Source: an uncultured Pseudomonadales bacterium (GTDB lineage Bacteria > Patescibacteriota > Microgenomatia > UBA1400 > UBA12108). From it: a stretch of 64,000 nucleotides of DNA. The stretch lies in NCBI GenBank assembly GCA_964527065.1, contig CAZGNX010000001.1:45-64044 (forward strand), written 5' to 3'. The notes beneath the pieces are model-generated. The model searched no databases, had not been told where the DNA came from, and worked only from the letters and a program-made list of their open reading frames with translations. Both the position numbers and the translations under genes were made by a program. Below, in pieces: positions 43,852 to 58,094 of the stretch. How positions within the stretch are numbered: position 1 is the first letter of the stretch; the number at the start of each line of letters is the position of its first letter.

Positions 43852-44295
43852 ATGGGTATGATAGTTAATAAACTGGCCAAGAGAGAGTATCAGATATCCG
43901 ACACGTGGGTGGCGGGGGTGATGCTCACAGGTGCTGAGGTCAAGACTCTGCGGGGCGGGCGGGGGAGTCTGCGGGATGCCTACGCCAAGCTGATTGGGGG
44001 CGAGTTGTTCCTGGTTGGGGCTGATATTCCGCAATACAGCCATTTTGCGGGGCAAGAATATGACTCTAAGCGGTCGCGTAAACTCCTCCTTAAATCAAGT
44101 GAACTTATTAAGATCCAGCAGAAAGTTGAAGGGAAGAATCTAACTCTTGTGCCGCTGCGGTTATTCTTTAAGGGGAGATGGGCTAAGTGTGAGATAGGAA
44201 TAGGTAAGGGGAAGAAAGAGTGGGAGAAGCGGGAGGATATCAAGCGGCGGGACGTGAACCGAGAGTTGGCCAAGGCCATTAGAAAAAAAGTTTAG
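43852..44295 (+). CDS. smpB: SsrA-binding protein
   Basis: 147 aa. 'YQISDTWVAGVMLTGAEVKTLRGG', 'LVPLRLFFKGRWAKCEIGIGKGKK', basic C-terminal tail. Confidence 0.9.
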   Translation: MGMIVNKLAKREYQISDTWVAGVMLTGAEVKTLRGGRGSLRDAYAKLIGGELFLVGADIPQYSHFAGQEYDSKRSRKLLLKSSELIKIQQKVEGKNLTLVPLRLFFKGRWAKCEIGIGKGKKEWEKREDIKRRDVNRELAKAIRKKV

Positions 44296-44298
44296 TGT

Positions 44299-44744
44299 GG
44301 AGACGGAGGGCAATGAGCCCTCGTCCGCGTACCGCTACTAACATCATCTACATACTTAGATAATTTTGGCCCACCTTCGCCGAGGCTTCGGCGGGTAAAA
44401 TTTTAACCTCTTTTATCTTTGGTAATTATCTAACCATCAGACCTAGGAGGGTAGTCTATGATATGGCTCTGAGCGACAACCCCAGAGTTACGTCTCGTGT
44501 GTGTTTCCACCTACGTCTTCCCCACGAGCAAGTGGGACGTAAATGTCCTGTTAGGCTCTATAACCCGCAAAGGTGTAGTTACCGATCAAGGAAGCAAACG
44601 CAGCATCAGCTTTCGCCAATACTTTGTTTACTGTCTGTGCAATTTTATTGACAGATTTTTTTTGACGCTGTTTGACAACTTCTCTCGTCAAAGTTGGTAT
44701 GCAGATGTTAATGAGCTGGTACACGTCAAAGCAAGACGTCCCCA
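44299..44744 (-). ncRNA. ssrA: tmRNA (ssrA) candidate, convergent with smpB; boundaries approximate
   Basis: 3' end reads GGAC-GAGGG-CUCAUUG-CCCUC-CGUCUCC-A (tmRNA-style GGAC + T-arm + 7-nt acceptor strand + discriminator A), ending 3 nt after the smpB stop. 5' GGGGACG at 44744 pairs with it perfectly and is followed by ...GCUUUGAC... (cf. GGAUUCGAC). Possible tag ORF ending ...FAGYRA-UAA at 44551, followed by hairpins. Confidence 0.4.
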
Positions 44745-51651: not shown

Positions 51652-51736
51652 ATGGAGGTACTATCTCAAACTAGGTGAAATATATCAAGAGGATTTATAA
51701 CGGATTTATAAATTACTCTGGGGATTTTATAAACTG

Positions 51737-51820
51737 CGGAGGAGGTGGGATTCGAACCCACGAGACTCTTACGAGTCGAAGGTTAGCAACCTTCTCGAAT
51801 GGCCACTATCGGACTCCTCC
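51737..51820 (-). tRNA. tRNA-Ser (anticodon GCU), class II long variable arm
   Basis: Hand-folded: acceptor GGAGGAG/CUCCUCC, anticodon stem GAAGG/CCUUC, loop UUGCUAA, variable arm GACUCGUAAGAGUCUC, T-arm GUGGG-UUCGAAU-CCCAC, discriminator G. Confidence 0.85.
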
Positions 51821-51860
51821 AGTAGCAAGGATTATATCAGGGAAAAATAAATAAGAGGGG

Positions 51861-51948
51861 CGGAAGGGGAGGGATTCGAACCCTCGGTAGGCTATTAACC
51901 CACAGATGTTTAGTAGACATCGGCACTCGACCACTATGCGACCCTTCC
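51861..51948 (-). tRNA. class II tRNA (Ser-like, discriminator G) with anticodon loop CUACUAA, i.e. canonical anticodon ACU
   Basis: Hand-folded: acceptor GGAAGGG/CCCUUCC, D-stem GCAU/GUGC, anticodon stem GAUGU/ACAUC, loop C-U-A-C-U-A-A, long variable arm, T-arm GAGGG-UUCGAAU-CCCUC. Confidence 0.65.
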
Positions 51949-51959
51949 AGGTTTGAAAA

Positions 51960-52586
51960 TTATATCAGGCTGTGAGTGATCTGCTTTGATACCTGATCAT
52001 AGCAACCCATTATACGGATTAACAAACTGTAATCATGATATCTAAGGCCACACGTGCCATTGTATATTTTTCGATATCTCCCACCCTTTTTTATGGTTAT
52101 GTGGGGCTTAATAAATTGTTTTTCAGGAATATGTAATAGTTTTGACCAGTAGCCAATGGAGCTTTTTACATCATGAGTTGTATGTAATTGGAGAAATACT
52201 CTAAATTTACCTTCGTCAATTTCTCCTTTAAAGGCAAGTCTAAAGAGTTTAATAAACGTTGTTTGCATTCTTTCATCACTACTAACGAATTCTAGTGTGT
52301 TACTTCCGGGGTATTTGGCTCCTTCGCACCAATAGAATATCGATAGCAAGGTTTTGGCAGTATTCTGATCTAAACTATTTACTCGAAGCTTATCTAAGCT
52401 GTATAAATGGTTTCTTTTTCTCTCAAAGTGGTTTGTAGGTTCTTTCTGGTTATATATGCCAGGGGATTCTCGACACCAACGACTTATGTTGCTAGTGCTT
52501 TGACCTAGTTCTTTGGCGATTTCAAATTTTCTCTTTCCTGATTGATATAGGCCTTGTGCTTGTTCAACAATAGTTCGATTTCTCAT
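51960..52586 (-). CDS. HTH + LAGLIDADG-like homing-endonuclease-like protein (putative), AT-rich gene abutting the tRNA pair
   Basis: 208 aa. N-terminal HTH 'KFEIAKELGQSTSNISRW'. 'LLSIFYWCEGAKY' resembles a single LAGLIDADG motif. Visibly more AT-rich than its neighbours. 12 nt from the tRNA. Confidence 0.4.
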   Translation of the reverse strand: MRNRTIVEQAQGLYQSGKRKFEIAKELGQSTSNISRWCRESPGIYNQKEPTNHFERKRNHLYSLDKLRVNSLDQNTAKTLLSIFYWCEGAKYPGSNTLEFVSSDERMQTTFIKLFRLAFKGEIDEGKFRVFLQLHTTHDVKSSIGYWSKLLHIPEKQFIKPHITIKKGGRYRKIYNGTCGLRYHDYSLLIRIMGCYDQVSKQITHSLI

Positions 52587-54957: not shown

Positions 54958-55617
54958 ATGGCCTTGCTCAGTATCAAACAATTGAATGTCTGGGTAGGGG
55001 GTAAGCAGGTGCTGAGAGATTTTGACCTCCTGGTAGACAAGGGCGAGGTGCATGCTCTCATGGGTAGTAATGGAAGCGGAAAAAGCAGTTTGGCGAACGC
55101 CTTGATGGGCAATCCAAACTATGGAGTAGAGGGAGGTGTGATTACCTTCGCCGGGGAAGATCTACTGGGAATGACGAGCAATGAGCGTGCGCGGGCAGGG
55201 CTGTATGTAGCTTGGCAAACCCCGGTTATCATACCGGGCGTGTCAGTATTCAGTTTGTGCAAAGCAAGCTATGAGGCGCAGGGGAAGACGATCGGGAAAC
55301 TCACGCAGTTTAAGCAGACTCTAGAAAAGTTGGCAGTACGAGTAGGGCTGACTAAGGAATATGTAGGGAGGGGAGTCAACGAAGGATTCTCTGGTGGTGA
55401 GCGAAAGCGACTCGAACTGTTGCAGCTACTTCTCCTTGCGCCCAAACTTGCCATACTCGATGAGATAGACTCGGGACTTGACGCTCGTGGTGTGAAGATC
55501 CTGACTCAGATTGTGCAGGAGATGAGAGAACAAGGTACGAGTTTCCTCCTCATAACCCACAACAAACGATTACTCGAGTCAGTATTGGTTACAAAAGTAT
55601 GGAAGATTACCAACTAG
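54958..55617 (+). CDS. sufC: Fe-S cluster assembly ATPase SufC
   Basis: Walker A 'GSNGSGKSSL', ABC signature 'FSGGERKR', Walker B 'LAILDEIDSGLD'. Overlaps the sufB start. Confidence 0.85.
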   Translation: MALLSIKQLNVWVGGKQVLRDFDLLVDKGEVHALMGSNGSGKSSLANALMGNPNYGVEGGVITFAGEDLLGMTSNERARAGLYVAWQTPVIIPGVSVFSLCKASYEAQGKTIGKLTQFKQTLEKLAVRVGLTKEYVGRGVNEGFSGGERKRLELLQLLLLAPKLAILDEIDSGLDARGVKILTQIVQEMREQGTSFLLITHNKRLLESVLVTKVWKITN

Positions 55618-58094
55618 GCTTTAGCAGTGAGACAGGGGGCTACGCGTACAAAGCGAAGAAGGGCTTGTCGGAGAGCGTGGTGCGTGAGATCTCGGGACAA
55701 AAACACGAACCAGCATGGATGCTTGATTTACGCCTCGCGGCACTGAATCAATACGAGAGTATGCCGATCCCGCAGTGGGGTGCAGATCTGAGCGCTATCA
55801 ACTGGGACGATATCCACTACTACCTACGCCCAGTTGAAAAAGCGTATAAGAGTTGGGACGAAGTACCTGACTCGGTGCGACAAGTGTTTGATGCGATCGG
55901 AGTGCCTGAGGCTGAGAAGACCATGCTCGCGGGAGTGGGTGGGCAGTATGACAGCGAAGTGATCTACCATTCATTGCAAAAAGTATTGGCCAAGCGGGGG
56001 GTCGTGTTTCTCTCGATGGATGAAGGACTCAAACAATATCCCGAGATTGTTAAAAAATACTTTGGCACTGTCGTGCCATACGGTGACAATAAGCTCGCTG
56101 CGCTCAACGCGGCCGTATGGAGTGGGGGGAGCTTTGTGTATCTCCCAAAAGGAGTGGCGGTGGATCTGCCGCTACAAGCCTATTTCCGTATCAACGCAGA
56201 GAACGCGGGACAGTTTGAGCGAACGTTGATCATCGCGGAAGAGGGATCATCTGCTCACTATGTGGAGGGTTGCAGCGCTCCCGCCTTTACGAGCGCCTCA
56301 CTGCATGCGGCAGTTGTCGAAGTGATAGTGCACGACCGCGCCAAAGTGCGCTACACCACAGTGCAAAACTGGTATAAGACTGTCTACAACCTGGTGACTA
56401 AAAGAGCAAAAGTTGCGAAAGAGGCTAGAATGGAATGGGTGGACTGTAATCTAGGGTGTTTAACTGGCGATACTCAACTGCTCTCTCCATCTGACGGAGT
56501 AGTTAGGATGGACGAAATCAAGATGGGACAGACTGTTTTTGCATACGATTTCGACATATCTCAATTTGTAGAGCGTAAGGTTACTGGCTGGCAAAAAACT
56601 GGACATAGGAAGGTGTGGGGGGTGTTGTTAGAGGGTAGGCGGCTTCGGGCGACAGATAATCATCCATTTCTGGTTTTGGAGAGACAAGATAGGTTAGGAA
56701 GTAAAAGCAATGCCGGTGTTCGTTCTTTTGCCATGCAATGGAAACCACTGCGAGACTTATCTCGAGGAGATATGGTGGCGTATGTAGGAGGATTACCTGA
56801 TCTTGGTAAAACAAGAAAGTTAGAGTTTGAGTTTGTTAGTCGTGGCAGTGGTGGATATGTGAAATACCGTCCTCATTTGCCAAAAAAGACTAACGAAGAG
56901 TTGTTGTGGTTGCTCGGTGCGTATTTGGGCGATGGATATATGGAACGAGATTCCAAGACTAAAAGATTGCGAAGAGTTTACTTTGCTGTGCCTCCCAAAG
57001 ATAAAGCGCGTCAAAGATTAATTGATACACTTAACAAGTTATTTGGGGACGTGGTGACCACTAAGGGTATATGCGTGACGATTAACTCGACGGCGATAGC
57101 ACAGTTTTTTGAGTATCTGGGAATGAAGGGAAATGCTCATACAAAGCGCGTGCCTTCGTGGGTATTTACCTTGCCGTTTCAAGAACGGTTGGCCTTGCTT
57201 GAAGGATGCTTGGATACAGATGGCAACGTGCGGCGACTGACCCACCAAATAACCTTTACAAGCGCAGGGAAAGACTTGATGCTTGATCTACAGCAGTTGG
57301 CTATAAGTTGTGGACTCAAGATATACAAAATTCGCAAGCAGACCTTAGTTAGAACTCTGCCGCTTGGTAAAGAGCAAAAAGAATATACTTCGTATCAATT
57401 TTGCCTCTCAAACAGTGATTTAGGAGCCCTCAGGAGTCATCGAGTCAATAGTACAAGCAGATTGGTTTTTGCTCGCGTAACCAGTGTTGAAGTGATTGGA
57501 GAAGAGGATGTATACGACATTGAGGTAGAAGGGTCGCATAATTTTGTAGCTAACGGGATAGTCGTTCATAACAGCAAGGTCACCATGAAGTATCCCTCAT
57601 GCTTACTAGAAGGTGATAGAGCACATGGGGAGATGCTCTCGATTGCGGTGGCAGGAGTGGGCCAGCATCAAGATGCAGGTGCCAAGATGATCCATATGGC
57701 GCCCAACACCACGAGCAAAATCACCAGTAAGTCGATTAGTCGGGGCGGGGGGCGCAGTAGTTATCGGGGGCAAGTGAAGATCATTCCCACAGCCACAGGG
57801 TCGAGGAGCAAGGTGGTATGTGACGCGCTCATAATGGACGCGCAGAGCCGCTCCGATACCTATCCGACCAACCAGATTATGACAGGGGAGGCAACGCTCG
57901 AGCATGAGGCATATGTGTCACGGATCGGGGAGGAGCAGATACTCTACCTCATGTCGCGGGGACTAAGCGCCAAGGAAGCGGAGGGGATGATTATTCGTGG
58001 GTTTATAGAGCCAGTGATACAGGAGCTGCCGATGGAGTATGCGGTGGAGCTTAATCGTCTCGTGAAACTTGAAATGACAGGATCTGTAGGATGA
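55599..58094 (+). CDS. sufB: Fe-S cluster assembly protein SufB interrupted by an intein with LAGLIDADG homing endonuclease
   Basis: N-extein ends '...EWVDCNLG'. Intein starts 'CLTGDTQLL' and ends 'VVHN'. C-extein begins 'SKVT...' and carries SufB C-terminal motifs ('MSRGLSAKEAEGMIIRGF'). Exteins total ~459 aa. Confidence 0.9.
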   Translation: MEDYQLGFSSETGGYAYKAKKGLSESVVREISGQKHEPAWMLDLRLAALNQYESMPIPQWGADLSAINWDDIHYYLRPVEKAYKSWDEVPDSVRQVFDAIGVPEAEKTMLAGVGGQYDSEVIYHSLQKVLAKRGVVFLSMDEGLKQYPEIVKKYFGTVVPYGDNKLAALNAAVWSGGSFVYLPKGVAVDLPLQAYFRINAENAGQFERTLIIAEEGSSAHYVEGCSAPAFTSASLHAAVVEVIVHDRAKVRYTTVQNWYKTVYNLVTKRAKVAKEARMEWVDCNLGCLTGDTQLLSPSDGVVRMDEIKMGQTVFAYDFDISQFVERKVTGWQKTGHRKVWGVLLEGRRLRATDNHPFLVLERQDRLGSKSNAGVRSFAMQWKPLRDLSRGDMVAYVGGLPDLGKTRKLEFEFVSRGSGGYVKYRPHLPKKTNEELLWLLGAYLGDGYMERDSKTKRLRRVYFAVPPKDKARQRLIDTLNKLFGDVVTTKGICVTINSTAIAQFFEYLGMKGNAHTKRVPSWVFTLPFQERLALLEGCLDTDGNVRRLTHQITFTSAGKDLMLDLQQLAISCGLKIYKIRKQTLVRTLPLGKEQKEYTSYQFCLSNSDLGALRSHRVNSTSRLVFARVTSVEVIGEEDVYDIEVEGSHNFVANGIVVHNSKVTMKYPSCLLEGDRAHGEMLSIAVAGVGQHQDAGAKMIHMAPNTTSKITSKSISRGGGRSSYRGQVKIIPTATGSRSKVVCDALIMDAQSRSDTYPTNQIMTGEATLEHEAYVSRIGEEQILYLMSRGLSAKEAEGMIIRGFIEPVIQELPMEYAVELNRLVKLEMTGSVG
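56457..57572 (+). mobile_element. SufB intein (372 aa) with Hint block A/B and G residues plus LAGLIDADG motifs
   Basis: Cys1 (TGT at 56457-56459), 'ATDNHPFLV' block B (Thr-x-x-His), LAGLIDADG-1 'LLGAYLGDGYM', LAGLIDADG-2 'LLEGCLDTDGNV', terminal 'HN' + Ser(+1). In frame. Confidence 0.8.

Follow-up and report, generated by a model that had tools for sequence, protein, structure and literature searches.

The 64,000-nt stretch of DNA analysed here (hereafter the window) carries, at positions 51861–51948 of the minus strand, an 88-nt gene that is very probably a functional and conserved tRNA-Ser(ACU). It is an ordinary serine tRNA throughout, except for a supposedly nonexistent anticodon that has been retained across a clade, Ser(ACU) being common to a whole group of ultra-small Patescibacteria (Microgenomates). 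We consider it likely that the product is an elongator seryl-tRNA which originated by a G34A change, reads AGU through a most probably unmodified A34 and is tolerated without TadA or inosine.

ARAGORN reports tRNA-Ser(act) at 51858–51949 together with a second tRNA-Ser(gct) at 51736–51820, and the general tRNA model of Rfam matches 51861–51948 over its full length with 51.5 bits (gathering score 29; E 3.8e-08 for the window). In the Rfam model alignment the anticodon stem GAUGU/ACAUC encloses the loop CUACUAA (51910–51916, minus strand), which direct reading of the sequence and loop counts also give; A34-C35-U36 in standard numbering correspond to window positions 51912–51914. The minimum-energy fold computed without constraints is likewise this cloverleaf, and its variable arm is long. 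The earlier note had described a class-II, Ser-like tRNA with this loop, A34, anticodon ACU and discriminator G, and had proposed tRNA finders as the check; ARAGORN, Rfam and free folding concur in that description, and no other stem register of 51861–51948, the outcome the note had named as contrary to it, gives a conventional anticodon. The cloverleaf has the stems of a class-II tRNA-Ser (acceptor 7 bp, anticodon and T 5 bp each) and its 7-nt anticodon loop, along with the elongator features G18G19, T loop GGUUCGAAUCC, 7/5 acceptor/T stack, U33, A37 and A38; no CCA is encoded by the gene. With 7/5 rather than 8/5 geometry and ACU rather than UCA it is distinct from tRNA-Sec, and it is the Rfam tRNA model that scores best.

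The open reading frame (ORF) next to the tRNA gene, which encodes a 208-aa protein, has 26 homologues. Contigs for three of them were examined for tRNA genes, and Ser(ACU) was found also in the relatives with neighbour proteins of 56% and 49% identity; the anticodon stems vary between these relatives and the window gene yet stay complementary (GAUGU/ACAUC, AAAGU/ACUUU and GAGGU/ACCUC). A scan of one genome per species by the D-arm motif alone, leaving the anticodon free, returned at least 119 loci, the motif being common to many Ser tRNAs. Among the matches listed, the ACU form occurs in five more genomes, labelled Levyibacteriota, Woesebacteria, Microgenomates group, Patescibacteria group and, in one case, a Pseudomonadales MAG, a label that we suspect to be mistaken. 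A metagenome scan with an ACU-specific pattern yielded at least 120 loci. In total, ARAGORN recognizes Ser(ACU) in at least 127 loci, corresponding to at least 114 distinct sequences (mean column identity of 83% across 114), so that the comparison with orthologous loci suggested by the earlier note shows the gene to be no one-off. The metagenome pattern fixed the anticodon arm, and conservation of the anticodon in those loci is therefore by construction; only eight sequences, from the relatives with the neighbour protein and the anticodon-free genome scan, are unbiased in this respect.

Covariation was counted on an alignment of 113 sequences for a specified cloverleaf. Standard pairs make up 99.7% of the cloverleaf pair cells, and compensatory changes, in which both sides of a pair differ, occur at 15 of the 26 pairs, in 452 cells where shuffled alignments have 124. 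Covariation scores 0.448, compared with 0.151 for the shuffles and at most 0.088 when the partners are slid. Compensatory changes occur in all helices other than the D stem, whose sequence was set by the search patterns, and the variable stem of 5–6 bp covaries at all five pairs. As the search patterns fixed the D arm, and likewise the inner part of the anticodon arm, invariance in these parts is uninformative, and the covariation evidence is drawn from the acceptor stem, outer anticodon stem, variable arm and T stem. At anticodon-loop position 32 the window gene has C and 111 of the 113 aligned family members have U.

Throughout the 113 sequences of the Ser(ACU) family, G1-G2-A3, G73 and a long variable arm occur without exception, and the same identity features are found in the other Ser isoacceptor genes of these loci, Ser(GGA), Ser(CGA), Ser(UGA) and Ser(GCU). 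An altered amino-acid identity, which the earlier note had entertained, finds no support, given this agreement with four other Ser isoacceptors. SerRS does not read the anticodon; with the serine identity features in place, charging with serine is thus the natural expectation, and judging from its sequence Ser(ACU) would be a serine acceptor like the other members of the set.

The body of the tRNA shows its GCU ancestry. Over the 5' 45 nt, the Ser(ACU) consensus agrees at 44 of 45 positions with the Ser(GCU) genes found at three Chloroflexi loci, and the sole difference is G34A. Co-resident GCU genes share on average 73% identity with the ACU consensus over the first 45 nt, and the two Ser genes of the window are 70% identical to each other. 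The antisense strand of Ser(ACU) matches the Rfam family Plastid-psbl-rps4 with 40 bits; we take this family to be the antisense of plastid trnS-GCU. In full Ser/Arg tRNA clusters the ACU gene adjoins Ser(UGA) (locus L107), as does the ancestral-type GCU gene in a Microgenomates genome without ACU (L113). Compared with the canonical bacterial tRNA-Ser(GCU), which reads AGY, Ser(ACU) has the same class-II architecture, G73, GGA acceptor start, anticodon stem-loop context and D arm (GCAU-AGUGGUCKA-GUGC); it differs in A34, which is Watson-Crick complementary to AGU and not expected to read AGC, and in its coexistence with a second, divergent GCU gene. Ser(ACU) therefore keeps the ancestral, widely conserved Ser(GCU) body, and the adjacent GCU gene is the divergent one. 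In the simplest history, the ancestral GCU gene would have become ACU and a second, divergent GCU gene would supply G34. The earlier suggestion of a diverged G34A duplicate of Ser(GCU) thus holds for the substitution and for the GCU body, and fails for the relationship to the neighbour: a recent duplication of the adjacent GCU gene is ruled out by the 70% identity and by the ancestral body of the ACU gene. Microgenomates have a single compact tRNA cluster in which Arg(GCG) and Arg(CCG) lie in among all the Ser isoacceptors, Arg(GCG) standing in for the Arg(ACG) that is usual in bacteria (L005, 2328–6695; L107, 716–5155; L113, 4208–7895; L127, 11318–13339).

The co-resident tRNA-Ser(GCU) of the window, called by ARAGORN at 51736–51820 (minus strand), has a divergent body with a 3-bp D stem and a normal loop, UUGCUAA. 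It falls below the Rfam threshold, its best score in the tRNA clan being 36 bits to the tRNA-Sec model (threshold 47), probably because of the 3-bp D stem and long D loop. Ser(GCU) lies in the same locus as Ser(ACU) in 66 of the 127 loci listed, a count limited by locus length. U33 is near-universal in tRNAs, and among the distinct co-resident Ser(GCU) genes 14 of 54 have C33 in its place (loop UCGCUAA), as against none of the 23 GCU genes in loci without ACU (Fisher p 0.007). These C33 genes have intact stems and belong to two different tRNA bodies (L002, 6755–6841; L005, 6610–6695; L107, 716–800; and 11 further loci). Should C33 make the reading of AGU by wobble less efficient, there would be a use for an ACU partner; the GCU gene of the window has U33, however, and C33 cannot therefore be a general explanation for ACU.

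A sequence resembling an extended −10 promoter motif, TGATATAAT, is found 10 nt upstream of position 1 of Ser(ACU) (51959–51967, minus strand), where it overlaps the 3' end of the upstream ORF. A second copy lies 10 nt upstream of the GCU tRNA (51831–51839, minus strand), and the two Ser tRNA genes of the window thus have an identical motif at exactly the same spacing. Both copies were read from the sequence, and they might act as promoters; a two-hexamer promoter scan flagged neither of them, and no terminator was found.

The upstream ORF (51960–52586, minus strand) is AT-rich, with a GC fraction of 0.36 where the window has 0.48, and encodes the 208-aa protein, with an N-terminal helix-turn-helix, a LAGLIDADG-like domain and an invariant YWCEGAK motif. 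A Pfam search with the protein returned no family; its AlphaFold model is confident (pLDDT 85.6), and the predicted fold is LAGLIDADG-like. Members of the family (L005, 6001–6624 and 2398–2808; L006, 5743–6390; L243, 10719–11363; and that of the window) lie immediately 5' of a tRNA gene, either Ser(ACU) or Ser(GCU), in every locus found, with a distant paralogue 5' of Ile(UAU) and a weak one 5' of Ser(GGA). In L005 and L006 the ORF runs into the 5' half of the tRNA, and that of L006 ends at the TAA contained in the anticodon loop. The family behaves as a tRNA-gene-associated, possibly mobile, LAGLIDADG-like element. The gene is absent from all five genome loci and from most metagenome loci that carry Ser(ACU); it is thus an accessory neighbour rather than an obligate partner of Ser(ACU), and with so many loci lacking it, it is uninformative on the origin of the tRNA. 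The earlier note had seen in this homing-endonuclease-like neighbour a sign of horizontal origin. The AT-richness and the LAGLIDADG-like fold are borne out, and the conclusion is not: at least 114 distinct sequences are vertically conserved, most of the loci are without the LAGLIDADG-like gene, and arrival of the tRNA by horizontal transfer together with it was rejected on account of the same absence.

Several other features of the window may be recorded here. An intein that bears an endonuclease domain of LAGLIDADG type interrupts SufB (55599–58094, plus strand), as it does in the relative represented by L002/L003. A one-piece tmRNA (44295–44743, minus strand; 68.4 bits in Rfam) abuts the SmpB gene (43852–44295, plus strand); ARAGORN reported no tmRNA in the window, though it found one in the relative L005. 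The strand asymmetry of the window is unusually strong and uniform, GC skew being positive in every 2-kb bin of positions 1–64000 (0.09 to 0.31) despite the presence of genes on both strands.

ACU is complementary to the serine codon AGU, and AGU and AGC align with Ser in orthologues. In orthologue alignments of the window, AGA codons align with Arg in 42%, with Lys in 17% and with Ser in only 7% of cases, a profile like those of AGG and CGC. Among 63 ORFs, TAA ends 28, TGA 19 and TAG 16. With AGA aligned to Arg and all three stop codons in use, there is no sign of recoding, and reassignment of AGA to Ser, which would make an ICU anticodon harmless, is ruled out by the alignment of AGA with Arg and Lys. 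The earlier note had also suggested an analysis of AGU and AGC usage. The AGT/(AGT+AGC) fraction is 0.50 in the window and 0.62 in the ACU loci, compared with 0.64–0.76 for other NNY boxes in these AT-rich genomes. AGU accordingly shows no enrichment over the overall bias towards codons ending in U, and an explanation by codon demand was rejected for this reason, as it does not account for the gain of an ANN tRNA in the AGY box alone.

Of the roles proposed in the earlier note, that of a dedicated AGU reader is the one we favour, considering that AGA is still Arg and that an engineered ACU anticodon reads AGU. An orthogonal E. coli tRNA with ACU read AGU at 9.4%, with AGC and AGA below detection (PMC11066159), and E. 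coli grew better when Ser-tRNA(ACU) was overexpressed, an effect that few two-codon-box ANN tRNAs had (bioRxiv 10.64898/2026.05.15.725136). Genes for t6A37 synthesis, TsaD and TsaE/Sua5, are encoded in the window, and these enzymes would be expected to act on U36-A37-A38 of Ser(ACU). It is rather likely that Ser(ACU) works as an AGU-only reader with unmodified A34.

The alternative that survives best is that A34 is deaminated to inosine or otherwise modified, giving a broad AGY reader that possibly takes in AGA as well. The substrate loop of TadA in tRNA-Arg(ACG) is CUACGAA, and the YUACUAA loop of the family differs from it at position 36 only, with U33, A34 and C35 in common and U instead of G36. 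The A34 of the tRNAs in which TadA makes I34, namely tRNA-Arg(ACG) and tRNA-Leu(AAG) of Lactobacillales, is moreover gene-encoded as in Ser(ACU). E. coli turns an introduced Phe-tRNA(AAA) into the I34 form, and 88% of bacteria with non-ACG ANN tRNAs encode TadA (bioRxiv 10.64898/2026.05.15.725136). Among the 127 ACU loci listed, however, Arg(GCG) was found 26 times and Arg(ACG) not once, in keeping with reports that the radiation lacks Arg(ACG) and that some deep-branching bacteria do without inosine wobble (PMC8629427). The premise of the earlier note that A34 is tolerated only if edited to inosine is probably inapplicable to a radiation that uses Arg(GCG) and not Arg(ACG).

A tblastn search for TadA with an approximate E. 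coli query, covering about 0.8 Mb of fragments, gave no match in the window or in the fragments of carrier loci; the same query matched only five loci, all from outside the Patescibacteria: Omnitrophota, Planctomycetales, two Chloroflexi and Fimbriimonadaceae (L020, 2985–3407; L114, 2041–2463; L042, 6447–6893; L032, 2411–2827; L100, 7334–7657). These loci had been fetched via the Ser D-arm motif. Each of the TadA homologues shares a locus of at most 8 kb with a Ser tRNA gene, in four of the five cases Ser(GCU); no TadA homologue is present in the corresponding neighbourhood of ACU carriers. The co-occurrence with tadA and tRNA-Arg(ACG) that would accompany an inosine tRNA is thus not seen in the locus fragments, which is suggestive and fits the reported lack of the wobble-inosine system. 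In addition, AGA is a frequent Arg codon in the carrier loci (about 15 per 1000 codons) and, as described above, aligns with Arg and Lys, so that an ICU anticodon would misread it and cause Arg-to-Ser errors. We regard inosine or another modification at A34 as unlikely.

It is also conceivable that A34 bars the tRNA from translation and that its role lies outside decoding, for example in supplying serine to tRNA-dependent transferases, whether of the cell envelope or others, or in regulation. Such a role would accommodate the apparent redundancy with Ser(GCU) in the same locus (66 of the 127 listed) and the lack of special enrichment of AGU, and reviews have proposed non-canonical functions for 'missing' tRNAs (PMC8007984). 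Ser(ACU) nevertheless has the full set of standard elongator features and is placed within a Ser/Arg tRNA cluster, no transferase partner is conserved beside it, and the engineered ACU anticodon does decode AGU (PMC11066159); a non-decoding role is accordingly quite improbable. A decaying or neutral G34A duplicate, that is, a pseudogene, would agree with the usually sporadic occurrence of two-codon-box A34 tRNAs (bioRxiv 10.64898/2026.05.15.725136). The earlier note had named a pseudogene score as evidence against its reading; the gene scores well over the Rfam threshold (51.5 bits against 29), has a promoter-like motif or tRNA-cluster context upstream and belongs to a family of at least 114 distinct sequences with 99.7% of stem cells paired, and covariation in the stems that were free to vary rules out a pseudogene, to which we give hardly any credence. 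An amber (UAG) suppressor or shifted register using the CUA at loop positions 32–34 or 35–37 of the window gene, which the earlier note had rightly rejected, can be set aside practically altogether, as covariation fixes the 7-nt loop and 5-bp stem with ACU at positions 34–36, the first CUA is not conserved (U32, giving UUA, in seven of the eight loop-unconstrained sequences and 111 of 113 overall), and TAG terminates 16 of the 63 ORFs. Two pairs of same-frame ORFs separated by TAG are present in the window; one consists of two genes, for a ComF-like phosphoribosyltransferase followed by glycogen synthase, and the other of an OCD-like protein followed by an ORF without a Pfam match.

For the dedicated AGU reader the following course of events may be envisaged. 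An ancestral bacterial tRNA-Ser(GCU) would have acquired G34A in the Microgenomates lineage of the Patescibacteria. The encoded elongator tRNA would be charged with serine and pair Watson-Crick with AGU through A34, which would most probably be left unmodified, and the divergent second Ser(GCU) would go on reading AGC, plus AGU by wobble. In an ordinary bacterium the U33-A34-C35 loop would likely be a target of the deaminase, and the resulting ICU would read AGA (Arg) as Ser; G34A could have been fixed and kept because the TadA/inosine system is not used in the radiation. We infer the charging with serine, the unmodified state of A34, the restriction to AGU and this release from TadA from the evidence assembled above.

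ANN anticodons other than Arg-ACG have been described as missing from bacteria, and the eight of two-codon boxes, Ser-ACU included, as 'universally missing' (PMC8007984). A survey of 4,047 bacterial genomes in GtRNAdb found two-codon-box ANN tRNAs to be sporadic, always beside a GNN tRNA and never retained by a clade; Patescibacteria are not mentioned in that preprint (bioRxiv 10.64898/2026.05.15.725136). Ser(ACU) is likewise not mentioned in a 2026 study of the tRNA genes of 95 complete Patescibacteria genomes, and no description of a bacterial Ser(ACU) was found in the literature searched, which is absence of evidence and not proof. Natural unmodified A34 is described for Mycoplasma tRNA-Thr(AGU) and yeast mitochondrial tRNA-Arg(ACG) (PMC11066159; PMC3711424). 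Those two tRNAs resemble Ser(ACU) in having a genomic A34 in a reduced genome without a wobble deaminase. They serve, however, four-codon boxes, in which 'superwobble' is harmless, and replace other isoacceptors, whereas Ser(ACU) is additional to a GNN tRNA and belongs to the AGN box, which is split between Ser (AGY) and Arg (AGR) and in which AGA is still Arg. Engineered E. coli tRNAs (Schmitt et al. 2024; Raval et al. 2026 preprint) have the same anticodon, are AGU-selective and are tolerated or beneficial; they are laboratory constructs, unlike Ser(ACU), which is natural and retained across a clade. We propose tentatively, at somewhat less than an even chance, that Ser(ACU) is the first natural, clade-wide and long-retained split-box A34 tRNA, that its A34 is unmodified and that the near-universal bacterial ban on ANN anticodons stems largely from the wobble deaminase rather than from the ribosome.

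If this is true, the persistence of Ser(ACU) in Microgenomates devoid of inosine would be direct natural evidence on the cause of the bacterial ANN ban, and C33 in some of the partner Ser(GCU) genes is a hint that the two tRNAs have come to share the AGY codons in a different way. For annotation it implies that tRNA scanners will report Ser(ACU) and that curators may discard it as a pseudogene. The scarcity of A34 tRNAs in bacteria and archaea has been an open question since Crick's wobble paper of 1966 and was still being studied in 2024–2026. Kept by purifying selection alongside Ser(GCU), and in the apparent absence of TadA, Ser(ACU) is a natural test bed for the decoding by unmodified A34 in vivo, for its cost in accuracy at AGA and AGG, and for the loss of the deaminase as a permissive condition.
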